Positions 4,522 through 60,600 of a stretch of DNA of 64,000 bases are shown here, one piece after another. Position numbers and translations under genes: made by a program. Position 1 is the first letter of the stretch, and each line of letters opens with the position of its first letter. The notes under the pieces are model-generated. The model saw nothing but the letters and a program-made list of their open reading frames with translations, did not search any database and was not told where the DNA came from. The DNA is from Dehalococcoidia bacterium (lineage in GTDB: Bacteria; Chloroflexota; Dehalococcoidia; UBA6926), in assembly GCA_965207895.1 (NCBI GenBank), contig CBDBNN010000003.1:1027755-1091754 (forward strand), given 5' to 3'.

Positions 4522-4571
4522 GAACGAAACAGACTAAGAGACTGACACGGAAACGCTAAAGGACATCGCAC

Positions 4572-5171: not shown

Positions 5172-5209
5172 GGCGGACTAAAGAGACGCGCAAAGCGAGG
5201 GACGGAAAC

Positions 5210-5527: not shown

Positions 5528-5570
5528 AGGCTGAGCGTAAATACTGAGACACGAGAATAGCGGAGCAGAA

Positions 5571-5846
5571 ATGGCGCATAACGACGAACAGGCCGAGACA
5601 AACAACTTGATGGATCGGCTGATCGTGCCGATTATGTTGCCGGTTGTCGCCCTCATCGTCACTATCGCGCTGATTGTTGGCATCGGTCTTCTCCTGTACG
5701 CCGTCATCCCGCATGACTACGTCAAGCTGGCCGGCGAGAAAGTCTACTACTCCGTCCCTGTCGCGCTTGGGCTTGCCCTCTTCTTCCTCCTGGGCTTTGC
5801 TTTTCTGGCGTCCTTGGCGAAGGACGACAGCGGCGACTCCCAGTAG
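5571..5846 (+). CDS. Small 2-TM membrane protein of unknown function inside the oxidase operon
   Basis: ORF with two hydrophobic helices between ctaF and ctaG. No motif recognised. Confidence 0.45.
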   Translation: MAHNDEQAETNNLMDRLIVPIMLPVVALIVTIALIVGIGLLLYAVIPHDYVKLAGEKVYYSVPVALGLALFFLLGFAFLASLAKDDSGDSQ

Positions 5847-5939
5847 TTCGTCGCCGCTGATTCACGGCGGCCCAACTGCTTTGTACATTCAGAGCGCTCC
5901 TGCATCCGCAACGCGCCGAAAAGGGCGTAGGATTGCGGC

Positions 5940-6830
5940 ATGAATGACCTTGGTGATTATCTGCTTGCGTGGTCGTGGGAGCCGCTGACGCTATTCTTCG
6001 TCGGCCTCCTAGGGATTGCCTACGTCAGGGGACTGCGAGGCCTTAACCCGATTAAGGTTCGTGTCGTTACCAACTGGCGCGCCGCGTCCTTTGCAGCCGG
6101 CCTGCTGTTGCTGCTCCTCGCGCTCATCTCGCCAATAGACGCGCTGGGCGGCCGACTGTTCGCCTTTCACATGGCGCAGCACATGCTCCTGATGCACGTT
6201 GCCGTGCCGCTTATTCTGCTCGGAGCGCCGGTCCTGCCTGTTGCCCGCGGCATGGGATACGGAATCCGTCGCCTCACCCTCATCAAGCTGGCGAGAGCCC
6301 CTCAAGTGCGTTTCGTATTCCACATCCTTATCCATCCTCTGGTTGGCTTGGCGGTCTTCGTGGGTGTTATCTGGTCATGGCATGTCCCGGGAGCCTATGC
6401 CGCCGCCGTCACTAACGATTTCGCCCACATCGGCCAGCACGCCAGCTTCATAACTGCGGCAACACTTTTCTGGTGGGCCATCATCGACCCGACGCCCATC
6501 CGTGGCAAGATTCCCTACCTCGGAAGGCTCGTCGTTGTTGTTATGGCGCTGTCCCTGACATTCCCGCTGGCTGCAATGCTGACATTCGCAGCTGCGCCCT
6601 GGTATGAGCCGTACATCGGCCAGGAACCGCTGTGGGGCATCGACGCGATGACCGATCAGCAGATTGGCGGACTCATCATGTGGGTTGGCGGCATTGCGCC
6701 GTATTTCCTCGCGATTGCCGGCCTGTTTATCGTTGCCGTGCAACGTGATGAAGAAGACACGCGCCGCTCGCGTGCCGCCCTCTACAAGAATCCGCCGAAT
6801 CATGCGCCGCATAGGCCGGCGACCACGTGA
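5940..6830 (+). CDS. ctaG: Putative caa3-type oxidase assembly factor CtaG (Caa3_CtaG family) multi-pass membrane protein
   Basis: 7-TM protein with an HMAQHMLLMHVAVPLILLGAP motif, in the position ctaG occupies in Bacillus-type caa3 operons. Confidence 0.55.
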   Translation: MNDLGDYLLAWSWEPLTLFFVGLLGIAYVRGLRGLNPIKVRVVTNWRAASFAAGLLLLLLALISPIDALGGRLFAFHMAQHMLLMHVAVPLILLGAPVLPVARGMGYGIRRLTLIKLARAPQVRFVFHILIHPLVGLAVFVGVIWSWHVPGAYAAAVTNDFAHIGQHASFITAATLFWWAIIDPTPIRGKIPYLGRLVVVVMALSLTFPLAAMLTFAAAPWYEPYIGQEPLWGIDAMTDQQIGGLIMWVGGIAPYFLAIAGLFIVAVQRDEEDTRRSRAALYKNPPNHAPHRPATT

Positions 6831-8739: not shown

Positions 8740-8945
8740 TCAGCCCCTCCGTCATTCCCGCGAAAGCGGGAATCCAGTGCGGCGCACAGTGCCGCCGCAC
8801 TGTCATTCTGAGCGTAGCGAAGAATCTAAAATCTCCATTGCGCCGCTCATCCTGAGCTTGTCGAAGGGCATGAGCGGGGACGCTCTCGCCTCATTCCGGC
8901 GAAAGCCGGAATCCATCGGGACTCTCCTCTTCGGACTATGTGGTA
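8740..8945. repeat. Cluster of composite intergenic repeat modules (A: gtcattcccgcgaaagcgggaatccagtg; C: gtcattc(c/t)gagcg(c/t)agcgaagaatc; B: ctca(t/c)cctgagcttgtcgaaggg; A': cattccggcgaaagccggaatccatcggg)
   Basis: The same modules recur at >10 intergenic loci in this window. Track ORF 8777..9013 lies wholly inside the cluster and is rejected. Confidence 0.8.
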
Positions 8946-26699: not shown

Positions 26700-26810
26700 C
26701 GTCCGTCATTCCCGCGAAAGCGGGAATCCAGTACGGCGCAACGCGCCGTTCACCGCTCACCCTGAGCTTGTCGAAGGGTGAACCCCTCTCCCTGAGAGAG
26801 AAAATCGAAC
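26700..26810. repeat. Composite intergenic repeat (modules A+B+D fragment)
   Basis: gtcattcccgcgaaagcgggaatccagt... ccgctcaccctgagcttgtcgaagggtgaacccctctccctgag. Confidence 0.8.
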
Positions 26811-33067: not shown

Positions 33068-33435
33068 GATCCCCCCTCCCTGAGGGAGAGGGTTAGGGTG
33101 AGGGGGTGTCTCTCCCTCGTCATTCCGAGCGCAGTCGAGGAATCCAAAGACTCATCTGACAAGCATGCTGGAACGCGGCAAGCCTGTTTCTTCTTCAGAC
33201 AAGGCAAGACCGCGAACTTAAGCCGTAGCGCAGCTACCCGTTCGCCCTGAGCGTAGTCGAAGAGGGCTCCCGAACGGGGACTTGGCCCACCGTCATTCCC
33301 TCGAAAGCATGTCCCGTGCTCCGATACGGGGCGGGAATCCAGTGCCGCCCACGGGGCGGCCTCGAAATCCCCTCTCCTTCAGGGAGAGGGTTAGGGTGAG
33401 GGGGTGCCCCCCCGCATGCCTTCGCTGAGACGGCT
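33068..33435. repeat. Large composite repeat cluster (modules D, C, B, A-variant, D)
   Basis: cccctccctgagggagagggttagggtgaggggg occurs twice, plus gtcattccgagcgcagtcgaggaatc, gttcgccctgagcgtagtcgaagagggctcccgaacgggga, and gtcattccctcgaaagcatgtcccgtgctccgatacggggcgggaatccagtgccgccc. Confidence 0.85.
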
Positions 33436-37875: not shown

Positions 37876-37904
37876 CCAAAGCGACGACGCCCCGTAACGC
37901 ATTT

Positions 37905-38120
37905 CCCCTCATTCCGGCGAAAGCCGGAATCCATCGGGATACCCTCCCCCTCGCAACCACCGTCACCCCCGCGCAGGCGGGGGCAGGGTGGGGGTGAAGA
38001 GAGAATCCCCTCCCCCTCGATGGGGGAGGGCTAGGGTGGGGGTGACGGCAACGTCATTCCGAGCGTAGCCGAGGAACCTAAAGTCGTATCTGGTTACCAA
38101 GTTGGAACGCGGCACCACAA
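37905..38120. repeat. Composite repeat cluster (A'-variant, D-variants, C-variant)
   Basis: cattccggcgaaagccggaatccatcggga, cccctccccctcgatgggggagggctagggtgggggtga, gtcattccgagcgtagccgaggaacctaaag. Confidence 0.8.
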
Positions 38121-38182
38121 ACACACCGGCCCTCCGTGCAGGAACGCGAACCGAGAGCTGTAACGCAGTTACCTCCCATCCG

Positions 38183-38962
38183 TCACTCCTCCAGCGACGC
38201 CAAAAAACCCTGCAGACGGCTGTTAAAGGCCTCGGGATCCTCCCTGTGCGCCTCGTGGCCCACGCCCGGCAACAGGTCAAGCTCCGCCCCACGGATGGAA
38301 TCCCGGAGCATACGGGCGTGCCTGGCCCCAGCCCAATCGTCATCCTCCCCCTGCACGATCAGCGTTGGGCAGGTGATAGTATCCAGCCGGTCGCCGACGA
38401 TGCGGGGCTCGGTCTGATAGATGCGCTCCGCGCTCGCCACGTAGTCGTCGACCATCCCCTCCCAATAAGGGGAACCGTGGCTGCGGGCGAGGGCTTGCTG
38501 AAAGCCATCGGGCAGGTTGCTGGCGGGTGACAGCTGCCGCGTCGTCTCCATCGTCTGTTCGTCTAGAACCGCCTGCCCGGAGATCAGCGTCAGCGACCGC
38601 AGTCGATCGGGATGGTCGCCGGCAACCATCATCGCCACGATAGCGCCGTCGCTGAACCCGCACAGATGGACGGGCGGCAGCTCCAGGTTTTCAATCAGGG
38701 CCGCAATGTCCTCAGTGTCCCTCTCGTAGAAATCGTCGAACGATTCACGAGGGTCCGATCCGCCGTGGCCCAGGAAATTCGGCACGATCACCTGGTAGTC
38801 CGAGGCGAACTCGTTTATCTGTCCCCGAAAGTGGGCGCGGCCGGTCCCAAGCGCCCCGTGCAGGAACAGCAGCGGCGGCCCATCCCCCTGCACGATGCAG
38901 CGCAGACGGCCATGCTGCGCCATAACATCTATCTCTTGCGGTTGTTCAGCTTCATACGTCAT
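38183..38962 (-). CDS. Alpha/beta hydrolase fold protein
   Basis: LLFLHGALG oxyanion region and GFSDGA nucleophile elbow. Start set at MTYEAEQ with GGAG RBS. The N-terminal extension into the repeat region is rejected. Confidence 0.8.
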   Translation of the reverse strand: MTYEAEQPQEIDVMAQHGRLRCIVQGDGPPLLFLHGALGTGRAHFRGQINEFASDYQVIVPNFLGHGGSDPRESFDDFYERDTEDIAALIENLELPPVHLCGFSDGAIVAMMVAGDHPDRLRSLTLISGQAVLDEQTMETTRQLSPASNLPDGFQQALARSHGSPYWEGMVDDYVASAERIYQTEPRIVGDRLDTITCPTLIVQGEDDDWAGARHARMLRDSIRGAELDLLPGVGHEAHREDPEAFNSRLQGFLASLEE

Positions 38963-39059
38963 AGATCGTCTCCGCCCCCTCCCCATGCGATACACGGCAA
39001 GCGCCTGATTATACCAAGTCTGGTGAGCCCACCAAGACTGAATTGCGAACTTAAGCCGT

Positions 39060-39240
39060 AGCGCAGCTACCCGTTCGCCCTGAGCCTGTCGAAGGGGGCT
39101 CCCGAACGGGGAACTAACACCACCGTCATTCCCGCGCCAACCGAATCCCCGCGCAGGCGGGGCCCACGCCGCCCACAGGGCGGCTCCCCATGTCATTCCG
39201 AGCGCAGCGAAGAATCTACAGACTCAATTATGCCGCCCAA
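39060..39240. repeat. Composite repeat cluster (B, A-variant, C) at the left border of the low-GC island
   Basis: gttcgccctgagcctgtcgaagggggctcccgaacgggga, gtcattcccgcgccaaccgaatccccgcgcaggcgggg, gtcattccgagcgcagcgaagaatctacag. Confidence 0.8.
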
Positions 39241-39260
39241 CCCCCATTGCGTGCTCTCGT

Positions 39261-39962
39261 TCATCCTGACTGCAATGGAGATTGGCTGACTTCAACGTGA
39301 ACAATCCTACGTTCATCTGGACGAATTGAATCTGGGAAAGAAGTGCGGGGTATTGGCAAACTTGCTACGTAATTATGGTGTGCGCTGTTGTAGAAGTTGC
39401 GCAGAACGAAATCCACGAATTTGGTCGGTGTCAGCGGAGAACTTACTGGAATCCTGCAGTTTCGGTATTGTCCGAGAGTCAGATGTACTCTTGGGTGTAA
39501 CGATTCTGGTGGTCCCTGATCTGCCAAGTTATAGTCGAATCTCAAAGGAACAGGGACCACATTGCTTGCCACCACTTCCGCGAAGACCACGTTATTGATA
39601 TAGATGTCAGGATTAGCTTGGAACTCATGAAGATATGGGGAAGGGAAGAAAGCGAGGCGGTGACTTATGAGCCGACTTCCGTCGTATCGATAAAGCATCT
39701 GTAGCAGACCACCGTCAAGCATCTTGACGTTGTAAGCCCTCGATGCAACTAGCTGATCATAGATAACCTCGTACTCTTGGTTGTGAAGTGCAACACTTAT
39801 ATGTTCGGAACCTTCAAAGCTTATCTCTAGGAACCCATCATTTAGCCGCCGTTCGAACGGAAAGCTTTGATCATCTGCTAGACTTTCAACAATCAAGAAT
39901 CTAATGATTCCAGTGATCTCGGCTTTCGTTTCGTTTGCGGTGGCCATGACATTAGTCGTCAA
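39261..39962 (-). CDS. Hypothetical protein, 233 aa, no recognisable domain. Partner gene of the NERD-helicase (11-nt overlap)
   Basis: ORF in a low-GC context. Its start overlaps the stop of the upstream helicase gene. Confidence 0.55.
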   Translation of the reverse strand: MTTNVMATANETKAEITGIIRFLIVESLADDQSFPFERRLNDGFLEISFEGSEHISVALHNQEYEVIYDQLVASRAYNVKMLDGGLLQMLYRYDGSRLISHRLAFFPSPYLHEFQANPDIYINNVVFAEVVASNVVPVPLRFDYNLADQGPPESLHPRVHLTLGQYRNCRIPVSSPLTPTKFVDFVLRNFYNSAHHNYVASLPIPRTSFPDSIRPDERRIVHVEVSQSPLQSG

Positions 39963-42144
39963 GCAGTTCTCTTAGCTTCAGAACGTCCATTTTGTCCAAG
40001 TCCTCCGTCCGCATCTCCCCAGATTCAAGGCTCTCTATGAGCTCTGCAAATCTCCGCCGCCCACCTTCCAGACGCCGCTTCTCCGACTTTGTCATATCTC
40101 GGTGAACGATCTTGAGGCGCTCCCGTAATGTTGCCCCCGGATACACAAAATCCAACTCAAAGTCTCTTTTTCGGAGTTCCTCATATTCTTTCATGAGAGG
40201 CTGCATGCGATTTCCGAAACCGACCACTCGAATCCAAGCTTTACTTCGTGTAATCGCAGTGAAAAGACGATTACGCACTGTTGCTAGATTTATCGCAGAT
40301 GTCGTGCAATCTTGGGCATTGATGATGTAGACCATTCCAGCCTCGTTCCCTTTAGCGCGAAAGATCCCAGTAAATGTTACGGAGGGCGTGCCGGACATAT
40401 AGAATACGTCTGGATCTGTGTCTACACCCGCAATATGCGACTGAATACCCATATCCGCTAGCATTGCTCTTATGGGCCCTACGTTTGCTCGGGTCGAAGT
40501 AGGGTCTGGATTGATGACGACAATGTCGTCATGGCGCAACTCTTCATCCTCAATATTGGCCTTAATCTGAGTTGCCACCCATTCAGCCTGCTCCGCATCG
40601 CTTTCAAAAACTTTGAACTGAAGCAAGTCACTCAGGTCTGAGTGATCCTCAAGGAATCTAGGACTAGTCGTTTCATCACGTTGCAAAACAACCGGTTCGT
40701 TGTCTGCGAGCCGCCCTTCTCGAACCCTGTAGCCCACGTCCTCCCACAAGTTTGCATTGTCGAACATTTGAATTAAGCCGGTGTCAGCTCCAGTCGGTGC
40801 CTCCCGATAGATACCGAACCCGAGGGCATGGGCAGTTACGAGCAGTGGACGTGAGTTCCTGTAACACTTCCGCAAAATGATGTCAGCGCTGTCAGGCTCG
40901 TTACTCGCCTGTACTCGACCGTTACCTGATGCTGCCTCTGGCATATCTTCAAATATTCTCTCTGGTGACGGCAACGATTCGTCCCTGAGATTCTGCAACT
41001 CGTCATAAGCATAGACCAGCCGCTTAGGCTCTCTCAGGAAAGCATGGCATAGTCTGAGAAATGCTGGCGAGAAGTCTTGTGCCTCGTCAATGAGAATGGC
41101 GTCGTACTGAGGGCGTAATTCCTCCGCTTGGCTAAGTGCCAATGCGCAGGCCTTCGAAAAGGTGTCTTGCGCTCCTAAAGTTCGCCTCGCAGATTGGAAG
41201 TCAAAATAGGATAAACCGTGAGTATGGCAGAACTCAAAATATATGCCATCGCGTCTATTGGCGCCAGGAGCACCCCAAGCATTCACTATGCGAAGTTGGT
41301 CCCAATTCGGTTCTTCATTTGTTTGTTGAAGGAAAAAGGATGCGATTAGTCTCTGAAAAAGTGCCTTTAGAGATCTTGTGTTGAACGTAACAGCGATCCG
41401 CCAGTCTGGGTGCTGGGCATGCAAATATGCTGCCTTTCGGGCGAGAACGATGGTCTTCCCTGACCCTGCAAGCCCTCTGATTCGTTGGACGCCCTCCACA
41501 GTTTCGACAACTGCCTTGCGTTGCATTCCATCCAGGGCAGCAATCGAACCCTCTAGCTGCTTTAACCTAGCACCCCTAGAATCGGGCGATTCTGCAGGCC
41601 GCTTGGTCCTCGTTTGACGGATAGCTGACGTGCTGTCAATTGCTGCGAGCGTGGCCTCGAACAAATCAGCCCGTTCCCATGTGGCTCCACTGGCAGTTAA
41701 CTTGCTACCCAAATCCTGTGCGTTAGCTATCGGATAGCCTTTCGTTCCGCTATCTGGCGACATATCTACCGCAGGAGCAAAAGATATTACCTCTATTGGA
41801 ACGAGGAGTTCTCGATGTTCCACAAGCTCTCGCTGTAGTTTCAATTTCGATTCCAACTTGTTGTAAGAATCATCTTGCAATGCTTCGTATCCCTGAAGGT
41901 CGGTGCCCTCTATAAGGCAAATTATGGTCACGCCTGTCTCTCTAGTGACTAGTAGCCCGTCGATTACATGCGGACCTTCGCTCGTTGCCACTATTGGGTA
42001 GCCAACAAGCAGGAGGCCGCTAAGGCCTTCAAGGTCGGTTACAATGCTCGCCAAGACGCTTGAGGAGGCAGGTTTATTGCTTGTACCCCTTACGACTTCT
42101 ATGCTCACAGCTTCACCCCAGAACGCTATGGTGCTTGCCTCCAC
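39952..42144 (-). CDS. Fusion of an N-terminal NERD-like/PD-(D/E)xK-like nuclease domain with an SF1 (UvrD/DUF2075-like) helicase/ATPase. Nhi-like architecture
   Basis: N-terminal LLLVGYPIV...HVIDGLLVTRETGVTIICLIEG resembles NERD. Walker A GLAGSGKT, Walker B ILIDEAQDF, YRNS, FRAKGNEAGMVYI and TAITRSKAW motifs of the SF1/DUF2075 type. Start codon uncertain (GTG at 42144). Confidence 0.7.
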   Translation of the reverse strand: MEASTIAFWGEAVSIEVVRGTSNKPASSSVLASIVTDLEGLSGLLLVGYPIVATSEGPHVIDGLLVTRETGVTIICLIEGTDLQGYEALQDDSYNKLESKLKLQRELVEHRELLVPIEVISFAPAVDMSPDSGTKGYPIANAQDLGSKLTASGATWERADLFEATLAAIDSTSAIRQTRTKRPAESPDSRGARLKQLEGSIAALDGMQRKAVVETVEGVQRIRGLAGSGKTIVLARKAAYLHAQHPDWRIAVTFNTRSLKALFQRLIASFFLQQTNEEPNWDQLRIVNAWGAPGANRRDGIYFEFCHTHGLSYFDFQSARRTLGAQDTFSKACALALSQAEELRPQYDAILIDEAQDFSPAFLRLCHAFLREPKRLVYAYDELQNLRDESLPSPERIFEDMPEAASGNGRVQASNEPDSADIILRKCYRNSRPLLVTAHALGFGIYREAPTGADTGLIQMFDNANLWEDVGYRVREGRLADNEPVVLQRDETTSPRFLEDHSDLSDLLQFKVFESDAEQAEWVATQIKANIEDEELRHDDIVVINPDPTSTRANVGPIRAMLADMGIQSHIAGVDTDPDVFYMSGTPSVTFTGIFRAKGNEAGMVYIINAQDCTTSAINLATVRNRLFTAITRSKAWIRVVGFGNRMQPLMKEYEELRKRDFELDFVYPGATLRERLKIVHRDMTKSEKRRLEGGRRRFAELIESLESGEMRTEDLDKMDVLKLRELLDD

Positions 42145-42298
42145 TATTGTAACGGCTTACACTCCGCTCTCCCTACATCTAATCGAGGTCAGAAAGGTGC
42201 CAGCTATTCGGTTAGACTGTGAAGTTCTCTAACGGCAGTAAGTTTCGACTGAAAGTAAGGATGGGTTTGGAAGGCGCACTGCAACAAGAGTGAAGCAT

Positions 42299-42370
42299 GG
42301 GCCCGGCAGGGATCGAACCTGCGACCGATCGGTTATGAGCCGACTGCTCTGCCACTGAGCTACGGGCCCC
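42299..42370 (-). tRNA. tRNA-Met (anticodon CAT). Could alternatively be tRNA-Ile2 (lysidine), but not initiator-like
   Basis: Cloverleaf read from sequence: acceptor GGGCCCG/CGGGCCC, D-arm GCTC-AGTGGCA-GAGC, anticodon loop CTCATAA, T-arm GCAGG-TTCGATC-CCTGC, discriminator A, no encoded CCA. Confidence 0.8.
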
Positions 42371-42598
42371 CAAAAACAAACGATGTCACAATCGTAGCAT
42401 CGAGGATGAACATCGAACCGCCGACCCGCGGCGAGGCGCGTGGCGGTGGCCTCGGCCGCTGGGATACCATTGGGGCATGGCTCATACGACCCTCCTGTGT
42501 ATCCAACCCTTACTTTTGTTCTACCTACGCGACCAAACGGCAAGCTGGGCGCGCCCAAACACGCTGCCCGACAGCACGAGGGCAGGGGCGCAGAACCG

Positions 42599-43855
42599 GT
42601 GAGATACCAACCCCATTACGGCTGGGTCATCGCCGGCGTTCTCTTTGTCTGTTTCACCCTGACCGTCGGCATGCTCCAGTACTCCTACGGTGTCTTCGTG
42701 GCCCCGCTGGAGGAGGAATTCGGCTGGACGCGCGCCGAGGTCAACGTATCCCTATCGTTCTTCGCGATGACCGGCCTCCTGGCCCCCCTCGCCGGCCCTC
42801 TCCTGGACCGCTTTGGCTCATCGCGAGTGATGATGCTCTCGTATCTGCTTCTTGCAATCAGTTTCCTGCCGCGCCCGTGGATGACGGAACTCTGGGAGTT
42901 CTACGCGCTCAACATCCTGATGTACGCAGGAATGCCGGGCGCGATCATGCTGCCCGTCGGCAAGCTCATTGGCATCTGGTTCACGGAGGCGCGAGGCCGC
43001 GCCGTCGGCATCACGGCCATGGGCGCCAACTTCGGCGGCTTCATCTTCTCCGCCCAGACACGGACCCTCATCGACCTCACGGACTGGCGCGCAACGTATT
43101 TCATCTTCGGCGTGGCGATCGCCATGCTCATACCAATCATCGCGCTTACGATCAGGGACGCGCCGCGTCGCCCGGCGGACAGACCGCTGAGAACGGAAGC
43201 TTCGGCCGTAGTCCCGCCTGAGGAGGGCATGGCCGTTCGCGACGCGATACGCACCCGCGCCTTCCTCCTTATGACATTCGGACTGCTCCTGGCGACGATT
43301 CCGTATCAGTCGGTCCTGACGCAGATAATCCCGCACCTCGAGGCCGAGGGCATGAGCTCGGCGGACGCCGCGTGGGTGCTGAGTGTCCTGGCCGTCTTCG
43401 GCATGGTGGGAAAGGTGCTCCTCGGCTGGCTATCGGATCTCATCGCTGCCCGCAAAGTCTTTGTCGCCAGCCTGTTCTTGCAGGCGTTTGGGTTGCTGGT
43501 ACTCGTCAACGGAGGCACGTCGATATACGTGTGGCTCCTATTTGTTCCGATATTCGGCGTTGCCTTTGGCGGCATGGGATCCCTCATGACACTCCTGCCG
43601 CTGGAAACATTTGGCATCCGGGCGTTCGCCTCGATTTTTGGCCTGCTCAGCCTGCTCATCCTCCCCACCGCCCTCATCGGCCCGCCGCTGACCGGCTACG
43701 CATTTGATGTAACAGGCTCCTACACGATTGCGTTCTACGTGATCGCGGCCCTCCTCGTCATCGGATCAATTGCCCTCTGGTTTGCCGCCCCGCCAAAATG
43801 GCAGAAATCCGAGGAAGAAGAAGAAACCCGCGACATCGCCCAGGTCGCAACGTAG
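42599..43855 (+). CDS. MFS transporter (OFA/MCT-like)
   Basis: 12-TM MFS topology. GTG 42599 chosen; the longer track N-terminus is doubtful. Confidence 0.75.
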   Translation: MRYQPHYGWVIAGVLFVCFTLTVGMLQYSYGVFVAPLEEEFGWTRAEVNVSLSFFAMTGLLAPLAGPLLDRFGSSRVMMLSYLLLAISFLPRPWMTELWEFYALNILMYAGMPGAIMLPVGKLIGIWFTEARGRAVGITAMGANFGGFIFSAQTRTLIDLTDWRATYFIFGVAIAMLIPIIALTIRDAPRRPADRPLRTEASAVVPPEEGMAVRDAIRTRAFLLMTFGLLLATIPYQSVLTQIIPHLEAEGMSSADAAWVLSVLAVFGMVGKVLLGWLSDLIAARKVFVASLFLQAFGLLVLVNGGTSIYVWLLFVPIFGVAFGGMGSLMTLLPLETFGIRAFASIFGLLSLLILPTALIGPPLTGYAFDVTGSYTIAFYVIAALLVIGSIALWFAAPPKWQKSEEEEETRDIAQVAT

Positions 43856-43958
43856 TCCCACCGAGGAACCCCCTCCCCGTCACCCCCATGCCGGAACGCG
43901 GCACGGGAACTCCAAGAGTCGGCCAAAGTAAATCGCGAACCATGGCCGTAGGCACTGC

Positions 43959-44861
43959 CTACCGCTCCAGCACACTCAACGGCCGTTCCGCCATCCCCGC
44001 CACGATGGGCGTCAATCCCTGTTGCGTCAGCGTCGCCGCCGCCCCGTCCGCCTCCTCCCGCGTCCCCAAAACCGCATACAGCGACGGCCCCGCCCCGGAA
44101 AGACTCACATTCGCCTCACCCGGAACCGCCTGAGCCAGCGCCTCCCGGAACCTCCCGATACCCGGAAAAGCCCGATCCGCCACCGAATTGAACGTGTTGA
44201 CCGCCGCCACGCCCCGTAGAACGTCGCCCACCGACGAACCCGACTCGATAAGCTCCTTCAACCCCCTCGTCCGCTCACCGTCCCCATACAACGACTCATC
44301 CAGCATCCGGAACAGCACCCGCGTTTTCGGCGACGGCACCGGGACCTCCGGCACAAGAATCACGGCCCACGCCAACGGCATCGAGGGCAGGGCAGTGATC
44401 GTCTCCCCCCGCCCCTCCACCAACGCCGTCGCCGACTCCCCCAAAAAGAACGGCACATCGGACCCCACCGCCGCACCAATCTCCAGCAGCCGCTCGCGCC
44501 GCACAGGCGCGTCCCACAACAACGACAACGCCACCAGCGCCGCCGCTCCGTCCGCGCTCCCCCCGCCAAGCCCCGCCGCAACGGGTATAGACTTCCGTAA
44601 CAGCAGCCGCGCCCCCTGCTCGATACCCAACGATTCCTTCAGCAGCCGTGCGGCCGTCAAAACCGTGTTCTCGTCGCTCTCCAACAGGGCAGGGTCGTTG
44701 CACTCAAAACTCAATGAGCCGTCCGGCGAGGGCAGGGCAACAAGCTCATCCGACAGATCGATGGCCTGCATCACGGAGATGAGTTCGTGAAAACCGTCAT
44801 CGCGCCGACCGATTACCTCAAGGCTCAGATTGATCTTGGCGTTCGCCGTAACGTGGATCAT
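43959..44861 (-). CDS. ispE: 4-diphosphocytidyl-2-C-methyl-D-erythritol kinase
   Basis: GHMP kinase motifs KINLSLEV and PVAAGLGGGSADGAAAL. ATGA overlap with upstream ksgA. Confidence 0.85.
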   Translation of the reverse strand: MIHVTANAKINLSLEVIGRRDDGFHELISVMQAIDLSDELVALPSPDGSLSFECNDPALLESDENTVLTAARLLKESLGIEQGARLLLRKSIPVAAGLGGGSADGAAALVALSLLWDAPVRRERLLEIGAAVGSDVPFFLGESATALVEGRGETITALPSMPLAWAVILVPEVPVPSPKTRVLFRMLDESLYGDGERTRGLKELIESGSSVGDVLRGVAAVNTFNSVADRAFPGIGRFREALAQAVPGEANVSLSGAGPSLYAVLGTREEADGAAATLTQQGLTPIVAGMAERPLSVLER

Positions 44862-45700
44862 GACGTCTCGCCTCGGTTCGCGGCCAGAAAACGCTGCATC
44901 ACCAGGGCGATTGGCGCCCACTCGTCGATGGTCAATGTCTCGGCCCGCCGCCGCCCATCGATCCCGATCGTCGTGAGCGCCGCGTCCACGAACTGCGCCT
45001 CGGTGCCAAGCCCCCCGGCCAGCGAGTTGCGCAACTGCTTGCGCGGCGCGCTGAAACCGGCCCGCGCCACACCGAAGAACTGCGGCTGCTGGTCCTCGGA
45101 AACACGTGGCTCCGGCAGCACATCCAGCCGAACGACAGCCGACTCAACACCCGGTGCGGGCACGAAACTCCCGGGCTTCACACGCCGCACGATCCGCGCA
45201 TTCGCGAAGACCTGCGTCGCGATCGTCAGCAGGCTTGCCTTGCCGGGTGGGGCCGTCATCTGCTGCGCCACCTCACGCTGCACCATCACCACCATCCGCT
45301 GCGGTGGGTGGCTCGACTCAAGGAACAGCCGAATGGTGGGAGACGCGACGTAATAGGGCAGATTCGCAACGACAACATACGGTCTCCCCCCCGTCAACTC
45401 CGCCGGTGACTGGTCGCGGATGTCTCCGTGAAGCAGCGTCAGATTTTGGTGTTCGGATAGCATCGTGCGCGCCTGTGCGACCATGTCCGCGTCGATTTCG
45501 ACGGCAACGACGTGCCCCGCGTTTTCGAGCAGCCGGCGCGTCAGCAACCCTGTCCCCGGCCCCACCTCCACGACAAGATCCTCGCTGGACAACTCCGCAG
45601 CCTCAACAATCCCGTCAAGCACCCCCCCGCTCACGAGCAAGTGCTGCCCCAGCGCCTTATTCAACCGAGGCCGTTCAGACCGCTTTCGGCGTGTCGTCAT
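44858..45700 (-). CDS. rsmA: 16S rRNA (adenine1518/1519-N6)-dimethyltransferase RsmA/KsgA
   Basis: LGQHLL, SAM-binding VVEVGPGTG, and NLPY motifs. Start at MTTRRK with GGAGGG RBS. The track N-terminal extension into the repeat is rejected. Confidence 0.85.
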   Translation of the reverse strand: MTTRRKRSERPRLNKALGQHLLVSGGVLDGIVEAAELSSEDLVVEVGPGTGLLTRRLLENAGHVVAVEIDADMVAQARTMLSEHQNLTLLHGDIRDQSPAELTGGRPYVVVANLPYYVASPTIRLFLESSHPPQRMVVMVQREVAQQMTAPPGKASLLTIATQVFANARIVRRVKPGSFVPAPGVESAVVRLDVLPEPRVSEDQQPQFFGVARAGFSAPRKQLRNSLAGGLGTEAQFVDAALTTIGIDGRRRAETLTIDEWAPIALVMQRFLAANRGETS

Positions 45701-45715
45701 CCCGCCCTCCGTAAT

Positions 45716-45830
45716 AGCATTCCCCTCATTCCGACGAAAGCATGCCCCGTACTCCGATACGGGGCCGGAATCCATCGGGACAATCCCCTCCCCCTTGATG
45801 GGGGAGGGTTGGGGTGGGGGTGAACACAAA
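45716..45830. repeat. Composite repeat (A-variant + D-variant)
   Basis: cattccgacgaaagcatgccccgtactccgatacggggccggaatccatcggga...cccctcccccttgatgggggagggttggggtgggggtga. Confidence 0.8.
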
Positions 45831-46139
45831 AAGAAAAGAGGCCATGCACCCCCTCTCGAACTGGATACCGGATGGGCGAAACGACCACGCGACTCAGCCC
45901 AGGCGCTCCCGCGGCGCCCGAAGGACATTCCTTATCGTTGCTTCCTTCCGGACCTGGCGAAGTTCAGAGGCCTTCGTCGCACGGGACCCGAACATCAACA
46001 TCGTTTGAGCGCCTCGCGTCATTCGGACCACAGCCCTCAAGAGGGAATTCAGCCTCGCTAGAGCGGATTGCGAGTACAGGGCACCGCTGGCTCCCCGCCT
46101 AGCATGACCTCGAAACTCAGTATCCCCGCGCCACCCCAT

Positions 46140-46330
46140 TCGGTCAACGCCCCCCCGTTCGCCCTGAGCTTGTCGAAGGGGGCTCGCGAACGGGAACCTG
46201 GACCCCCTCCGTCATTCTGGCCGCACGGCCAGAATCTGAATCGTATTGCGCCCCCAACTCCGGTAACGCCATGTCCGTCATTCCCGTGAAAACGAGAATC
46301 CAGTGCCGCCCAGAGGGCGGCCACAATCCC
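46140..46330. repeat. Composite repeat cluster (B, A-variants)
   Basis: gttcgccctgagcttgtcgaagggggctcgcgaacggga, gtcattctggccgcacggccagaatctgaatc, gtcattcccgtgaaaacgagaatccagtgccgccc. Confidence 0.8.
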
Positions 46331-46924: not shown

Positions 46925-47100
46925 CCCTAACACGAACCACATCGTCATTCCCACGAAAGCATGTCCCGTACCCCGATACGGGGCGGGAATCCAGTGCCGC
47001 CCCCAGGGCGGCCAATCCCCTCTCCCTGAGGGAGAGGGCTAGGGTGAGGGGGTATGTCATTCCGAGCGCAGCAGAGGAATCTAAAGCCTGCTTCTCAAGG
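46925..47100. repeat. Composite repeat cluster (A-variant, D, C)
   Basis: gtcattcccacgaaagcatgtcccgtaccccgatacggggcgggaatccagtgccgccc, cccctctccctgagggagagggctagggtgaggggg, gtcattccgagcgcagcagaggaatctaaag. Confidence 0.8.
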
Positions 47101-54646: not shown

Positions 54647-56332
54647 TTGATTGACCGCCGGGCTCTAAACGCCGTCGTAATCCTGACCATCTTCACGGTT
54701 TTATCCCTTCTGCTCTCTTGCACTCAGATCGACACCACTCCGACCTCGACTCAAGATTCTGACTCTCCCGCGCCAACCGCTGAAACGGAAACGTCGGCGA
54801 CAACACCGCTAGCAACTGCGACTCCTGTCCCTCCTGCATCGACTCCGGCTCCACCGACGGCCACACCCCCATCCCCTACGGCGACACCGTTGCCTGTGCC
54901 GACGCCGACGCCCACGGCGCTGGAATTGAAACTTGCGCGCATTGAGCAATTGCGTTGGTACGACGACGAATCATTGACGCAGGAATCACGCAACTCTTTG
55001 GTGACGAATCTCTGTGATCTCGCTACAGCTCATCCTGAGCTCTTTGAGGATGTTCTGAGCAAGAACTGGATTAATCCGGTCGACCAAACAGAATTGGACA
55101 CGGCTGGGTCTGTCGTTAGCCGCCTGATCGAGCTTGCCGGGAATGACGAAAGGGCAGCCCAGGACGTTCTTGTGATGCCATTCCTAGAAAGCCTTGATTC
55201 CATCAGAGAGCTTGATGAGTTACAGGCCGGGGAAGCAGAGATTCAAGTGCTGGATGCGCTGGTTTTTTTGAGCAATTTAGTCGATGGAGATTTCAGCGAC
55301 TACCTGGATAGCCTTCCTCTTGATGGCCCGATTGATGACCAAATTCTTGAGTACGATGATGACAATGACTCCAAAACGGACTTTGCGGAGCAACTGTCTT
55401 ACTACTATGTCCAGTGGACCAATCCTGAAATCGCCAGCGAAATCGATTCCATCACTCGGGGGCCTCATGAGCGGTTAGATTGGGCTTCAGACTTTGCGAT
55501 GCTCTACCTTTCTAAGCCCGAGACCTATCGACAGCTGTATGACGGACTCACTGGGCGTGGCGCAGGCGACTCTACGATTCGTGCCTTTTTGTACATCGCC
55601 ATTCAGGAACCGGAATTGGCTGTCCGAATCAGTCAAATGCCCGTTGCGATGGCAAGAGAAGAAGGCTACTTCTCCGCATGGGGCTTCCTTAGGAGGGCCC
55701 TGGAGCACGACCCGGCAAAGACCTGGGAAATTGTTGACGAGGTTGCACAAGACGGGGTTATAGAAGTAACTGACAACTATGCTTTCATGTTGGCCCTTCT
55801 TGGTGTGTTCGATTCAGAATTCAGCGAAACGCTCACAGCACTGCCCTGGGTGATTGATGGCGTACGGCCGCGGGAATACACGGTCAATGAAGAGGGTGAA
55901 CGTTCTTACTGGACTGGCTCTGGGGAAGATGAACCATTCATAAACTTGATCTACTGGGGGCTGGAACCGGAACGGACTGCGCTAAACAAACTGCTCAACA
56001 TGGGGTGGATTCGTGACGATGAATTCGATTGGTACGAGAGGAAGGTGGTTGACGAGCTGACGAACTTCTCCCATGCAGAAGTAGAAGTTCTATTGGATCT
56101 ACAGTTTCTGCGGAGCATTGAGAATGATGACCGTTTTTCTTTAAGCCGACTTAGGAATGCAATAGAGACTGATTCGGAACTTTCCTACCCCTTCCAGGAC
56201 ATTATTGAGCACCGATTGTTTGGTGGAGACATTACGGATGAGAACCAGTGCTACCTTGAGCGTGTCATTGAGGAACTGAGGCCGGGGTCGACGCGTGTCG
56301 CTGCAAATCCCGGCGCCGGAGAATCCTGCTAA
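54647..56332 (+). CDS. Hypothetical lipoprotein with a long Pro/Thr/Ala-rich linker and a ~450-aa acidic helical domain
   Basis: Lipobox LLSC. PTPT-rich low-complexity region. No catalytic motif. Confidence 0.5.
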   Translation: MIDRRALNAVVILTIFTVLSLLLSCTQIDTTPTSTQDSDSPAPTAETETSATTPLATATPVPPASTPAPPTATPPSPTATPLPVPTPTPTALELKLARIEQLRWYDDESLTQESRNSLVTNLCDLATAHPELFEDVLSKNWINPVDQTELDTAGSVVSRLIELAGNDERAAQDVLVMPFLESLDSIRELDELQAGEAEIQVLDALVFLSNLVDGDFSDYLDSLPLDGPIDDQILEYDDDNDSKTDFAEQLSYYYVQWTNPEIASEIDSITRGPHERLDWASDFAMLYLSKPETYRQLYDGLTGRGAGDSTIRAFLYIAIQEPELAVRISQMPVAMAREEGYFSAWGFLRRALEHDPAKTWEIVDEVAQDGVIEVTDNYAFMLALLGVFDSEFSETLTALPWVIDGVRPREYTVNEEGERSYWTGSGEDEPFINLIYWGLEPERTALNKLLNMGWIRDDEFDWYERKVVDELTNFSHAEVEVLLDLQFLRSIENDDRFSLSRLRNAIETDSELSYPFQDIIEHRLFGGDITDENQCYLERVIEELRPGSTRVAANPGAGESC

Positions 56333-56467: not shown

Positions 56468-57121
56468 CTAATAAATGTGCCGCTGTACAGAAGTGGCGAC
56501 GAACTGCTCAATGTCCATGATCGCCTGCGTGGTGGCCTGACCTACGAGGTCCAGCCTGCGCACCTGCTCGATGCGTTCGGCGGCGCTATTCAACTCGCGG
56601 CGTGACAACATGCCGCGCAGAATTCCACACGCGTCTGTCAGGCTCAACAAGACGATGTCACGCGGATCGGGGATCTCATCGCTAAAAAGGATACTCATCA
56701 GGCGCAGGCGCACTTCCCGCTCTTCCTTGCCGTCAACCATGGGATAACGGCGCGACTGAAATACCCAGAGAAAGCGATCATCCTTGCGTTCCAGAATGCC
56801 TCCATCGACTAGGCGATTTAGCGCTTCCTCACGGATTTCAGCTGCGCGGTTAGCAGTATGTTCAACCCAATAGCGCGCGTTCCGTTCTTCACCCGCAGCT
56901 ATGTCTGCCAACGTCGGGTCCAACAGCGAATCGTCAAGCGGCGAGGAATCTACCAGCACCAATCGCTCAAGGTCTGTGTCGATACGATTCTCCAGCGCAA
57001 GATCCATCAAGACGGCACCGGCCAGGGCATAGTCCATAGACCAGCTTGGCACGCGCGCGAATCGACCGTCATCGTCGTTCAAAAGGAGTAGAATGATCTC
57101 TTCAGCGAAACGTAGCGGCAT
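56468..57121 (-). CDS. GPP34/GOLPH3-like family protein
   Basis: N-terminal AEEIILLLLNDDDGRF and overall helical pattern resemble bacterial GPP34 homologs. Confidence 0.55.
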   Translation of the reverse strand: MPLRFAEEIILLLLNDDDGRFARVPSWSMDYALAGAVLMDLALENRIDTDLERLVLVDSSPLDDSLLDPTLADIAAGEERNARYWVEHTANRAAEIREEALNRLVDGGILERKDDRFLWVFQSRRYPMVDGKEEREVRLRLMSILFSDEIPDPRDIVLLSLTDACGILRGMLSRRELNSAAERIEQVRRLDLVGQATTQAIMDIEQFVATSVQRHIY

Positions 57122-57678: not shown

Positions 57679-60600
57679 GTGGTTTCCGGGTTCAGGCAAT
57701 TCACGCGGGTTCTTGCTAATCCCGCAGCGGTCTCATCGTTGCTGGTCATGGCTGGAGTGCTCTCAAGCCTAGCTCTGTATATCGTTCTTGAAGAAACCGC
57801 TTTAGCGCAGTCGCTCACTGCACAGCAGTCTCTCGCTATCGAAGGTCCTACAGCTATTGAGTTTCCTGAGAACAGTGGTGAGGCCATCGCCACGTATCGA
57901 GTGACGAATGCTACGCCTGGCTCGATAATCTCCTGGTCAATTGATGGCGCTGATGCCAGAAGGCTGTCCATAGATGGTTCCGGCGTCTTGCGTTTCAAGG
58001 CGGCCAGGAACTTCGAGGAGCCGAATGATGGAAACCGTGACAACGAGTACGAGATTGATTTATCAGCAAGCGATGGATCAACTCAAGTCTCGGTTGAGGT
58101 GGCCGTCATGATTACGGATGTTAATGAGTCGCCGGCTTTTGAACTCGAAAGCGCGGAATTCTCAGTAGAGGAAAACGCATCCGCCAATCGACGTGTGGGT
58201 GGTGCACTCGCGGTTATAGACCCCGATGACGGCGACTTGATGACGTTCTCATTGGAAGGAGAAAATGCAGACCCGTTCCATATTGACGCCGAAGGGCAGA
58301 TTCGTGTGCGCCCGGGTGCCATCCTCGACTACGAGACCTCAGGCATTCTGAGTTTCACCGCTCGTGTAACAGATCAGGATGGCCTGAGTGTTTCATTGCC
58401 TGTTCAGATAGCCCTAACCGATGCAGACGATCCGGGGATCGTTACCTTCTTGTCTGCCCGGCCGTTTGTTGGAGTGCCGCTCACGGCGATGGTTTCCGAT
58501 CAGGATGGTGTTACTGGTCGAATCCGATGGAGATGGTATCGAGCCACGAACACTAACGATGAATTCGAGCGAATTGATGGAGCGACTGGGATCTCGTATA
58601 CGCCAATGGATGATGACGAGGGATACATCTTGCGCGTGACGGTTTCGTACGAGGACAACTTCGAAGTAGGGGCTTCAGCTTCGCAAATCAGCGAGAAAGT
58701 TGGCAGAAACGCTGCGCCTCAGTTTGAATCGGCGTCCATCACTCTGACGGTTCCGGAGGGCGCGCCTGCCGGAACGGATGTTGGCAAACCTGTTACAGCG
58801 ACGGACAGTGATGATCACGATCTTACCTACGCTCTTTCAGGAGAGGATGCGTCTTACTTTGAGGTCAACGTTTCAACCGGACAGATTAGAGTTGGCGCGC
58901 AGGCGCTGCCAGATTCAGAGACGAAGGCCAGCTACACAATGATTGTTACTGCGACGGATGAGGCGAGGGCGGCAGCGTCCGTCACGGTGATAATTACAGC
59001 AAGAGTTTCAAATACTCCGTCCGTCATCATCGGTCCGGCCACTGTCAGCTACGCAGAGAACGGCACGGCGTCTGTGGCAATGTACACGACCACTGACCTA
59101 GAGGGCGATGGAATTATTTGGGGCATTGAAGGAACTGACGCGGCGCGATTCACGATAAACGTTGCGGGCGAGCTGATATTCAATTCGCCGCCAGACTATG
59201 AGAAACCGCGTGATGCCAACATGGACAACGTGTACGAACTCACGGCGACGGCGTCGGACGGAAACCTCACCGCCGAACTGAATGTTGAAGTCGCTGTGAC
59301 GAACGTCAATGAGGCAGTCATCATCACCGGCTCCGCATCCGTCACTTACGCGGAGAACGATACTACAGCAGTCGTAGTGTATTCCGCTATCGACTCGGAT
59401 GGAGACAGAATCACGTGGGATGTTGTGGGAACGGACGCGGATTGGTTCTCGATCAGCCAAGTAGGAGAGCTAACATTCAACTCGCCGCCGGACTATGAAA
59501 AACCGCGAGACGCCAACAATGACAACGTCTATAAGGTGTCCGTGACGGCGTCGGACGGCAATCTTGAGTCTACGCTGAACGTGGAAGTTACCGTCACGGA
59601 TGTCGTTGAGGCTAGCGCCATCACCGGTCCTGCAACTGTCAGCTACGCGGAGAATGGCATGGCGTCTGTGGCAATGTACACGACCAGTGATCCGAATGGA
59701 GACAGAATCACGTGGGACATTGCCGGAGTGGACGCGCCGCGATTCTCGATCGAGCCAACGGGTGAGCTGACGTTCAAGTCGGCACCGGACTACGAGAAGC
59801 CGCGTGATGCCAACAAGGATAACGTCTATAAGGTGATGATTACCGCGTCGGATGGGAACGTCACGGCCAGATTGGATGTTGAAGTCAGCGTCAGCAACGT
59901 CAATGAGGCCGCCTTGATCGATGGTGCGACGTCTGTTAGCTATCCGGAGAACAGCATCGTATCAGTGGCAATCTACTCGGCCACGGATCCGGATGGAGAT
60001 GAAATCACGTGGGATGTTGCGGGAACGGACGCGTCGCGGTTCTCGATCAAAGCAACGGGAGGATTGACGTTCAAGTCCACGCCGGACTATGAAAATCCGA
60101 ATGATGCCAACAACGACAATGTGTACGAACTGACAGTGACGGCGTCTGACGGCAATCTTGAATCCACCCTGGACGTGGAAGTTAATGTCACGAACATCGA
60201 TGAGTCCACCGTCATCACCGGCCCCGCAACTGTCAGCTACGCGGAGAATGGCATGGCACCTGTGGCACTTTACACGACCACTGATCCGAATGGAGACGGA
60301 ATCACGTGGAACATTGCCGGAGTGGACGCACCGCGATTCTCGATCGAGCCAACGGGTGAGTTGACGTTCAAGTCGGCACCGGACTATGAGAAACCGCGAG
60401 ATGCCAACAAGGACAACGTGTACGAAGTGACGGTAACAGCGACGGACGGCAACCTTGAGTCTACGCTGGACATTGAAGTTACTGTCGCGAACGCCAACGA
60501 GCCTGTGACTATCACCGGCTCCGCGTCCGTCACGTATGCAGAGAACAACGCCACGGCTGTAGCCGTGTATTCCGCTACGGACCCGGATGGCGACGGAATC

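Follow-up and report, generated by a model that had tools for sequence, protein, structure and literature searches.

A low-GC island at a tRNA 3' end in a Dehalococcoidia genome very probably carries a copy of the Helicase-DUF2290 anti-phage system

Introduction

What occupies the short, low-GC segment that abuts a tRNA gene in this Dehalococcoidia bacterium, and what might its two genes do? A sequence-only reading of the 64,000-nucleotide stretch of DNA that we analyzed (the window) had taken the segment, next to a tRNA 3' end, for an acquired immunity module of two genes and had called it a candidate uncharacterized defense module. The first part of that proposal holds up, given the matches to a system family, the foreign composition and the variable site. 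The second part does not, as the system is already in both PADLOC (as Helicase-DUF2290) and DefenseFinder (as Rst_HelicaseDUF2290) and has been phage-tested. Judging from its sequence, the island is very probably a horizontally acquired copy of this known two-gene anti-phage system.

A compositionally foreign segment between a repeat cluster and a tRNA

Four features define the setting of the two genes:

39244 to 42296, no strand: low-GC variable segment (the island), hotspot cargo between a conserved GC-rich repeat and a tRNA 3' end, defined by GC content and by the limits of homology with a sister contig
39060 to 39243, no strand: interspersed host repeats of high GC, whose cluster bounds the island on the left, from repeat counts in the window and alignment with the sister contig
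42298 to 42369, minus strand: CAT-anticodon tRNA gene (called tRNA-Met) whose 3' end is the right border of the island, found by ARAGORN and by Rfam (tRNA, 71.5 bits)
42109 to 42297, minus strand: leader or promoter region of 189 nt between the tRNA and the helicase start, part of the island and not of the conserved flank, as it is unalignable to the sister contig

The island has a GC content of 49.6%, against 59.2% in the remainder of the window and 62-65% in the adjacent genes; the drop from about 62% to about 45% described earlier is therefore real, with its size slightly overstated. Compared with all other sliding windows of 3.05 kb, the island has a z-score of -4.2 and lies below all 549 tested (minimum 53.1%). 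Its GC3 values, 0.50 for the helicase gene and 0.45 for the DUF2290 gene, compare with 0.69-0.79 for most of the host genes that we measured, including all four flanking genes. This comparison of sliding-window GC with the flanks had been named beforehand as a test, and it shows that GC is not uniform and that the segment is compositionally foreign. The DUF2290 gene is the sole part of the island that goes down to 46% GC. Elsewhere, a second low-GC patch lies further downstream, with two ORFs of GC3 0.56-0.59.

The sister contig (L085) fixes the borders: homology with it ends at 39243 on the left and restarts at 42297 on the right, which puts the borders at 39243/39244 and 42296/42297, at most 3 nt from those first proposed for a low-GC segment between the tRNA 3' end and the repeats. 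The minus-strand tRNA stands at the island edge as had been read, and differs from its L085 counterpart by one mismatch in 72 nt. The repeat cluster on the other side is likewise real, its units recurring in the window (CGCCCTGAGCCTGTCGAAGGG-like units in 7 copies and GTCATTCCGAGCGCAGCGAAGAATC in 2 copies, with 0 expected by chance for either), and positions 39183-39243 are 87% identical to L085 3745-3806. The flanks in L085 are as in the window, with 90% nucleotide identity for the hydrolase and 78% for the tRNA and MFS part, and a presence/absence comparison at this tRNA, also suggested beforehand, finds the syntenic site in L085 without the helicase gene. Its cargo there is a different one, of low GC, that matches PADLOC PDC-M32A and PDC-M32B; the same site in a relative thus holds a different defense candidate.

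In agreement with what had been noted before, our scans found no integrase in the island or among nine ORFs around it, both flanks included, and no att-like copy of the tRNA 3' end on the far side of the island, so that the tyrosine or serine integrase and the direct repeat of the tRNA 3' end that mark integrase-mediated tRNA-targeting islands are both absent here. A 13-nt repeat of the tRNA anticodon arm was considered as an att site and rejected; it lies inside the DUF2290 ORF and is probably due to chance. Scanned for promoter and terminator consensus sequences and against Rfam, the island yielded nothing apart from the tRNA, and in the leader at 42109-42297 we saw neither a sigma-70 consensus nor an Rfam match nor a credible small ORF.

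Two genes that match a known defense pair

The island encodes two proteins, the larger with a separate N-terminal domain:

39952 to 42108, minus strand: helicase subunit, probably about 718 aa from a GTG at 42108 (longest ORF to 42144, 730 aa), from PADLOC PDLC03002, Pfam and the family start consensus
41545 to 42108, minus strand: N-terminal domain of the helicase, predicted PD-(D/E)xK or restriction-endonuclease-like fold, about residues 13-200 of the 730-aa ORF, from fold similarity
39261 to 39947, minus strand: DUF2290 subunit, probably 228 aa from an ATG at 39947 (longest ORF from a TTG at 39962, 233 aa), from Pfam PF10053, PADLOC PDLC02999 and database entry P0001

The genes are adjacent: the helicase ORF stops at 39952, and DUF2290 begins at 39947 (or 39962). 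The large protein matches the PADLOC model "Helicase" (PDLC03002) with 977 bits and an E-value of 9.9e-295, over residues 15-729 of 730 and profile positions 2-705 of 707, and has Pfam matches to UvrD-helicase, UvrD_C_2 and AAA_19. An N-terminal NERD-like domain of restriction-endonuclease fold, with the nuclease fold at about residues 13-160, is followed by an SF1 core of the UvrD/DUF2075 type (Walker A at residues 226-230, UvrD_C_2 at 593-641) and a C-terminal helical tail; the earlier description of a nuclease-type domain joined to an SF1 helicase in one large protein was apt. The motifs that it listed (GSGKT, DEAQ, YRNS and FRAKGNEAG) are all present in nearly invariant columns of the family alignment, and the Walker A, Walker B and C-terminal helicase motifs agree with the invariant family columns.

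Because family alignments give the consensus start "MSIDIVRGT", we place the helicase start at GTG 42108 ("MSIEVVRGT"), which is probably the true one and would yield 718 aa. The source annotation has 659 aa only; this is a matter of start-codon choice and not a lesion, and the start given there for the helicase needs correction. The true DUF2290 start is probably ATG 39947, for a protein of 228 aa, and with this start the genes are separated by a gap of 4 nt. The 11-nt overlap reported before does exist between the longest ORFs (730 aa, 39952-42144, and 233 aa, 39261-39962); the products are probably shorter and do not share it. In relatives, the gap between the two genes is about 4-5 nt.

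The small protein had been said to have no recognizable motif and no described counterpart, neither of which proved correct. It is a DUF2290 protein by Pfam (PF10053, 159 bits against a cut-off of 25, E 1.2e-46) and over its full length by PADLOC (PDLC02999 "DUF2290", profile positions 1-221 of 222, E 2.9e-84), and thus the named partner in the published Helicase+DUF2290 system (PMC9122126). It is 100% identical to database entry P0001 (228 aa), and its closest relative has only 57% identity; the closest relatives of the helicase have 59-63%. Alignments with relatives run end to end, over residues 10-728 of the helicase and 1-218 of DUF2290.

The two genes are co-inherited across phyla. In 79 of 83 related loci, DUF2290 is immediately preceded by a co-oriented, full-length helicase homologue; the 4 others either run into a contig end or come from contigs that are short or fragmented. 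The helicase itself has a patchy distribution across phyla, at 44-63% identity. The pair stands alone both here and in two related loci (L002 and L003), its surroundings being free of mobility, replication and integrase genes; in another (L001) it lies within an island of type I restriction-modification and toxin-antitoxin genes. Further homologous pairs are found on conjugative and mobilizable plasmids beside replication, partition and toxin-antitoxin genes (E. coli pRHB10-C19_3), as well as in P4 and P2 hotspots (PMC9122126).

Published activity and related systems

The pair from Klebsiella pneumoniae SB5961, which comes from a P4-satellite hotspot, was cloned by itself and specifically inhibited T7 in E. 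coli (Rousset et al. 2022, PMC9122126). Deletion of the system in P. aeruginosa MPAO1 increased susceptibility to subsets of phages (bioRxiv 10.64898/2026.09.16.752016), and no protection from the phages tested was seen with a lactococcal homologue (PMC11381338). By HHpred, the Klebsiella helicase consists of NERD (11-112), DUF2075 (206-424) and a UvrD_C-type end to 633 (PMC9122126, Table S3). The helicase in the window is laid out alike, with a NERD-like N-terminus, an SF1 UvrD/DUF2075 core and a C-terminal tail; both of its proteins belong to the same families, with full-length PADLOC matches, and the gene order and tight coupling are also alike. Both pairs are small cargo of variable hotspots, the Klebsiella pair in a phage satellite and ours in a tRNA-flanked chromosomal site of a high-GC environmental bacterium, where its closest database relatives are only 57-63% identical. 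The link to the validated pair runs through PADLOC and Pfam profiles and partial published sequences; among the latter, those that cover the N-terminus in E. coli P4 and B. cereus have in common the pattern "G-[FY]-P-[VI] ... D-[GA]-L", as judged by eye.

Nhi, to which the large protein had been likened, is likewise an anti-phage protein in which an N-terminal nuclease-type domain precedes an SF1 helicase. The likeness is one of architecture: Nhi is a single gene without a DUF2290 partner, and we do not count the window protein as a member of its family, because the PADLOC Nhi model (PDLC02372) covers 45 residues only (345-390, E 2.6e-4). Gabija, with the OLD nuclease GajA and GajB, similarly pairs a UvrD-type SF1 helicase with a second protein, but our locus has no OLD/TOPRIM nuclease partner and a different domain layout, and the PADLOC GajB matches are weak and local, about 60 residues around the helicase motifs (E 1e-7 to 0.05). 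A NERD-like and UvrD-type architecture is also common to the PADLOC candidate C3a187 "NERD+UvrD" and the NCBIfam STM2767-family helicase. Their matches are confined to the first helicase lobe (residues 194-389; E 4.9e-14 and 1.1e-33), and the protein is not an STM2767 member, because it scores 117 bits against a cut-off of 550. Hachiman, another two-gene defense system of a helicase and a small partner, differs in that HamB is an SF2 helicase without a nuclease-fold domain of its own and HamA a DUF1837 effector nuclease; the PADLOC Hachiman models did not match either window protein.

How might the pair act?

For the N-terminal domain of the helicase, we found an alpha-beta-beta-beta-alpha-beta core fold resembling known nucleases. 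Two acidic residues, D62 at the start of predicted beta-2 and E79 just beyond the end of beta-3, are at least 95% conserved in the family, as is the pair E79-G80. The sequence at E79 is L-I-E-G, without the canonical (D/E)xK lysine; a conserved K24 lies elsewhere. In hmmscan with a limit of E <= 10, neither the window domain nor three relatives nor two published members matched Pfam NERD (PF08378); the NERD match of the validated homologue is at the HHpred level only (PMC9122126). When the first 200 residues alone were used to search for homologues, a single protein came back, a Burkholderiaceae fragment of 242 aa. The domain is therefore best described as a candidate nuclease by fold, which lacks the canonical lysine and is not reached by Pfam NERD in hmmscan.

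DUF2290 resembles no nuclease or toxin fold in our fold comparison, a PDB sequence search gave no match, and neither did tblastn against a phage collection. Its structure model is confident (pTM 0.83). Ten residues are invariant in all six members of an alignment that includes two distant ones at 20-24% identity (Y59, D78, A99, R136, D138, H151, H155, I166, F180 and R183), and the published DUF2290 of B. cereus VD115, which aligns at 24% identity, keeps all signature residues.

A literature search found no paper that addresses the mechanism of Helicase-DUF2290. Our own account is a tentative one, held with less than even confidence: the two proteins would form a complex, in which the large subunit, an SF1 translocase/helicase driven by ATP and bearing the restriction-endonuclease-fold domain at its N-terminus, would load on phage DNA at ends or replication intermediates. 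DUF2290, with its new fold and invariant polar cluster (D78, R136-x-D138, H151-x3-H155, R183), would act as the partner for regulation or sensing, or else be a second catalytic subunit, and phage DNA would be damaged or its replication blocked. The polar cluster and the lysine-less nuclease-fold domain offer mutable targets for this mechanism.

The main alternative, which we consider unlikely, is an abortive-infection variant akin to Hachiman, in which the helicase would be a sensor with a dead nuclease fold that restrains DUF2290, until phage or damaged DNA frees this effector to cause cell death or arrest. There is a precedent in Hachiman, whose helicase senses the state of DNA and controls its partner, HamB restraining the HamA effector (PMC12278908). 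The missing lysine fits such a sensor, the invariance of the R-x-D ... H-P-x-x-H cluster with D78 and R183 at 20-24% identity is active-site-like, and co-inheritance and translational coupling resemble toxin/restrainer pairs. Yet the conservation of D62 and E79-G80 argues against a dead domain, DUF2290 has no likeness to nuclease or toxin folds, and no toxicity or abortive-infection data are reported for Helicase-DUF2290. It is equally doubtful, at about the same low level, that DUF2290 is an enzyme of previously unseen fold, with D78, R136-x-D138, H151-P-x-x-H155 and R183 as its catalytic center, that acts as the real effector while the nuclease-fold domain of the helicase serves as a lysine-less sensor.

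Two further explanations are both very improbable. The first is that the pair serves its carrier mobile DNA, in replication, maintenance or exclusion of competing plasmids or satellites, with phage defense as a side effect. Its occurrence on plasmids and in P4 and P2 hotspots would suit this, but the pair stands alone in the window and in L002 and L003, sits inside a restriction-modification and toxin-antitoxin island in L001, and blocked T7 when cloned by itself (PMC9122126). The second, that the window copy is a decaying, non-functional remnant, could draw on the short 659-aa annotation, the lack of a promoter consensus in the island scan and two changed N-terminal positions, G63 in place of the family's A (at least 95%) and C76 in place of its D (60-80%). 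However, the annotation reflects start-codon choice, both ORFs are uninterrupted and align with relatives from end to end, and every helicase motif and every invariant DUF2290 residue is present.

Finally, it is hardly credible that the large protein belongs to the housekeeping SF1 helicases (RecD, HelD or PcrA type) and that the low GC is incidental; a match to a housekeeping helicase such as RecD or HelD, with conserved synteny, had been named in the sequence-only reading as a refuting outcome, and the absence of the gene from the syntenic site in L085 already refutes this explanation. In its favor are local and weak similarities around Walker A to PcrA, Rep, helicase IV and RecD2, a region where a PDB sequence search also gave only PcrA. 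Against it stand scores of 9-21 bits with NCBIfam equivalog cut-offs of 500-965 (PcrA 21 against 911; PcrA, Rep, UvrD, helicase IV, RecD2 and RecB scored), the patchy distribution, and the pairing with DUF2290.

Implications

The locus can be annotated as a Helicase-DUF2290 defense system, which for the window itself matters little. If DUF2290 were indeed the effector, the window protein, with its confident model, would give good access to a new class of effectors. For the family, the pair lies below its flanks in GC at 63 of 63 loci, a striking mark of constant horizontal movement in this clade. For the organism and its relatives, the 3' site of tRNA(CAT) is a small, integrase-less hotspot with different defense cargos in two related genomes, and it can therefore be mined for further systems in this lineage.

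Family assignment of the island pair

We analyzed the low-GC island at 39244-42296 of the window, which carries two minus-strand genes and borders the 3' end of a tRNA.

39952-42144, minus strand: helicase, longest ORF, 730 aa
39261-39962, minus strand: DUF2290 gene, longest ORF, 233 aa
42298-42369, minus strand: tRNA with CAT anticodon (ARAGORN, Rfam)

Judging from its sequence, the pair is very probably a horizontally gained Helicase-DUF2290 module with a predicted anti-phage function. The 233-aa protein, which a sequence-only reading had taken for an orphan without a described counterpart, is matched by Pfam PF10053 (DUF2290; E 1.2e-46) and, over the entire profile, by the PADLOC model PDLC02999 "DUF2290" (E 2.9e-84), so that this claim falls. 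For the large protein, the PADLOC match is PDLC03002 "Helicase" (E 9.9e-295, profile positions 2-705 of 707), and its Pfam domains are UvrD-helicase, AAA_19 and UvrD_C_2. Other helicase-bearing PADLOC defence models match it locally at most, the best being C3a187 "NERD+UvrD" (E 4.9e-14, residues 202-389). GajB (best E 1e-7) and AbiO (E 2.5e-4) also gave local matches; Nhi, whose architecture the sequence-only reading had compared with this protein, matches across 45 residues (E 2.6e-4). All sequence-level criteria tested for the Helicase-DUF2290 system place the locus within it, and those for Nhi, the NERD Pfam family, housekeeping helicases and integrase-type tRNA islands place it outside.

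Rather than an undescribed defence module, the window locus is a new and fairly divergent copy of an already known one, the published "Helicase + DUF2290" system. The cloned pair, taken from a P4-like satellite hotspot in Klebsiella pneumoniae SB5961, specifically inhibited T7 in E. coli, and the system also occurs in prophage hotspots, both in Vibrionaceae and in Bacillus (Rousset et al. 2022, PMC9122126). The validated Klebsiella helicase has the same domain layout as the window helicase, with HHpred placing NERD at 11-112 (98.1 %), DUF2075 at 206-424 (99.9 %) and UvrD_C up to 633 (PMC9122126). Later work on the system has been limited to detection, deletion or cloning (PMC10952713, bioRxiv 10.64898/2026.09.16.752016, PMC11381338): its deletion from P. 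aeruginosa MPAO1 led to a phage-specific rise in susceptibility (bioRxiv 10.64898/2026.09.16.752016), a lactococcal homologue did not protect against the phages used (PMC11381338), and a review describes the role of the helicase domains as not explored (PMC10952713). None of the papers retrieved by full-text literature search addressed the mechanism.

Linkage and distribution

At E <= 1e-5, the database contains 591 relatives of the window DUF2290 protein; the closest of them, leaving aside the protein itself, is no more than 57 % identical. A DUF2290 profile search of 1.84 billion representatives returned 1520 cluster representatives. The best 150 of these 1520 are mostly stand-alone proteins of ~215-240 aa, with some shorter fragments; none exceeds 272 aa, and none is fused to another domain. 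A scan with one genome per species found 282 loci, of which the best 80, at 43-53 % identity, come from Chloroflexota, Binatia, Latescibacterota, Spirochaetia, Cyanobacteria, Proteobacteria, Planctomycetota, Patescibacteria and others. A full-length helicase homologue (45-62 % identity) lies directly upstream of the DUF2290 gene, on the same strand, in 79 of 83 loci; the other four end at a contig edge (L008, L036) or lie on short or fragmented contigs (L081, L082). Of the 80 one-per-species loci (L004-L083), 63 have 3 kb or more of sequence to either side. Their flanks span 41 to 74 % GC, and the GC of the pair is below that of its flanks in every case (mean -10 points, none positive). Just 4 of these 63 loci have a tRNA within 600 nt of the pair.

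Gene models, protein anatomy and a possible mechanism

The sequence-only reading had described genes of 730 and 233 aa overlapping by 11 nt, which holds for the longest ORFs; family alignments favour shorter products. The helicase family N-terminus "MSIDIVRGT" corresponds to the window GTG at 42108 ("MSIEVVRGT", 718 aa), and the database entry for the DUF2290 protein (P0001), 100 % identical to the window protein, has 228 aa from the ATG at 39947, which leaves a gap of 4 nt between the genes (5 nt in the nearest relatives). From this starting motif and the 228-aa record, we infer that the true products are shorter than the longest ORFs. The source annotation of the helicase (P0122, 659 aa) begins at about residue 72 of the 730-aa ORF, removing most of the nuclease-fold N-terminal domain; here too, the family alignment favours GTG 42108.

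The helicase core is nearly invariant over 76 homologues, and the window protein conforms to it (GLAGSGKT, DEAQDF, YAYDELQNL, CYRNSRP, RAKGNEAG, LFTAITRSKAW). In the N-terminal nuclease-fold domain (730-aa numbering), conservation is 95 % or more for K24-P25, for D62 at a strand start ("IDaLL"), for E79-G80 just beyond the next strand ("LIEG") and for Q90-D91-D92; the second residue past E79 is not a lysine. The window protein has two deviations within the putative active-site strands of this domain (41905-41958): G63, beside D62, is Ala in at least 95 % of the homologues, and C76 is Asp in 60-80 % ("FDLIEG" to "ICLIEG"). A stand-alone Burkholderiaceae protein of 242 aa (P0121, WP_237574246.1) aligns with the N-terminal domain at 43 % identity, covering 93 % of a 200-residue query; it represents either a helicase gene that has been truncated or the nuclease-fold domain existing on its own. 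In an alignment of six DUF2290 proteins that included published Bacillus and P2-hotspot members at 20-24 % identity, Y59, D78, A99, R136, D138, H151, H155, I166, F180 and R183 are invariant. The resulting signature, R-x-D ... H-P-x-x-H plus one Asp and one Arg, looks like a putative active or ligand-binding site.

Protein anatomy, near-universal co-inheritance and analogy with Hachiman, Gabija and Nhi suggest a tentative mechanism, which we hold possible rather than probable. The two proteins would associate as a complex, in which the SF1 motor and the nuclease-fold domain attached to it would meet the ends or replication intermediates of phage DNA, damaging or blocking them. The DUF2290 protein may be a partner with a regulatory or sensing role, or else a second catalytic subunit. 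The main rival, somewhat less likely still, is Hachiman-like: the lysine-less nuclease-fold domain would be a sensor, and DUF2290 an effector freed upon triggering. Plasmid-borne pairs occur, for example on a conjugative IncI E. coli plasmid with an adjoining RelE/ParE toxin-antitoxin pair, and one metagenomic relative (L001) has the pair within an island of type I restriction-modification and toxin-antitoxin genes; a role in mobile-element maintenance is unlikely. It is also unlikely that the window copy, with its conforming core, is a dead remnant, or that the large protein is a housekeeping helicase, given its scores of 9-21 bits against cut-offs of 500-965.

Island composition and the tRNA hotspot

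The proposed drop in GC between the tRNA and a repeat cluster was borne out. In 400-nt windows, GC is 0.45-0.53 at ~39200-42300 and 0.60-0.66 in the flanks; the island (3053 nt) has 49.6 % GC against 59.2 % for the remainder of the window, below all 549 other 3.05-kb windows (z = -4.2; mean 0.592, sd 0.023, minimum 0.531). In line with this, GC3 is 0.50 in the helicase gene and 0.45 in the DUF2290 gene; most of the measured host genes, among them all four that flank the island, have 0.69-0.79. The tRNA at 42298-42369 (-) likewise confirms that the island begins at a tRNA 3' end. It had been called tRNA-Met(CAT); its acceptor and T arms are presumably closer to bacterial tRNA-Ile2 (lysidine-modified CAU) than to elongator or initiator tRNA-Met, identities that ARAGORN does not distinguish.

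The repeat cluster at the other border is also present, as GC-rich short interspersed repeats at 39060-39243 that recur over the window (7 and 2 copies; chance expectation 0). Units of ~20-60 nt lie at 8750-8870, 12769, 26700-26780, 29854, 31175, 33120-33365, 37893-37938, 39060-39243, 45780-46322 and 46983-47023, and the 7 copies of the CGCCCTGAGCCTGTCGAAGGG-like unit share the plus-strand orientation. Such repeats lengthen the N-termini of longest ORFs, for example those of a hydrolase (38183-39196, "PLRQAQGERV") and RsmA (44858-45928, "PSPIKGEG"). A second low-GC patch (50-52 %) at ~55.0-55.8 kb falls in a 561-aa ORF (54647-56332, +; GC3 0.56) without a Pfam match at E <= 1e-5, neighboured by a GPP34-family protein (56468-57121, -) and by a protein of 1693 aa (57679-62760, +; GC3 0.59) that matches a cadherin domain.

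A close relative of the window genome, metagenome contig LXNJ01003416.1 (L085), shares both flanks: DNA identity is 90 % for the alpha/beta hydrolase gene (window 38180-39046), 87 % for the repeat unit (39183-39243) and 78 % for the tRNA and MFS transporter (42297-44130), with 1 mismatch in 72 nt for the tRNA alone. This comparison sets the island borders at 39244-42296. Between the shared flanks, L085 has neither a helicase nor a DUF2290 gene, so the insert is absent from the same site; the interval (3807-6486) instead holds 2.7 kb of 51-55 % GC with three other ORFs, two of them matching PDC-M32, a candidate defence system in PADLOC.

4289-4678, minus strand: PDC-M32B, E 1.4e-41
4675-5493, minus strand: PDC-M32A, E 1.5e-31, C-terminal part only
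5493-6158, minus strand: ORF without a match in Pfam or PADLOC

L085 also has a glyoxalase-family gene (3300-3683, +) between hydrolase and repeat, which the window lacks. Since the cargo differs between the two contigs, the interval from the host repeat to the tRNA(CAT) 3' end is, by sequence comparison, a predicted defence hotspot whose content varies among relatives. As anticipated, no integrase was found in the island or the scanned flanking ORFs, and no att-like copy of the tRNA end. A 13-nt exact direct repeat, TTATGAGCCGACT, at 39665-39677 and 42333-42345 was rejected as an att site on account of its position, within the DUF2290 ORF and the tRNA anticodon arm; by estimate, chance would give ~0.1 pairs of this kind in 3.7 kb. 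The simplest reading is that cargo at the tRNA(CAT) site would be exchanged by recombination via the conserved flanks. For a system that is already known, a modest interest remains in the low GC of this Helicase-DUF2290 clade, consistent across loci, and in a small, integrase-less tRNA hotspot with alternative defence cargo.
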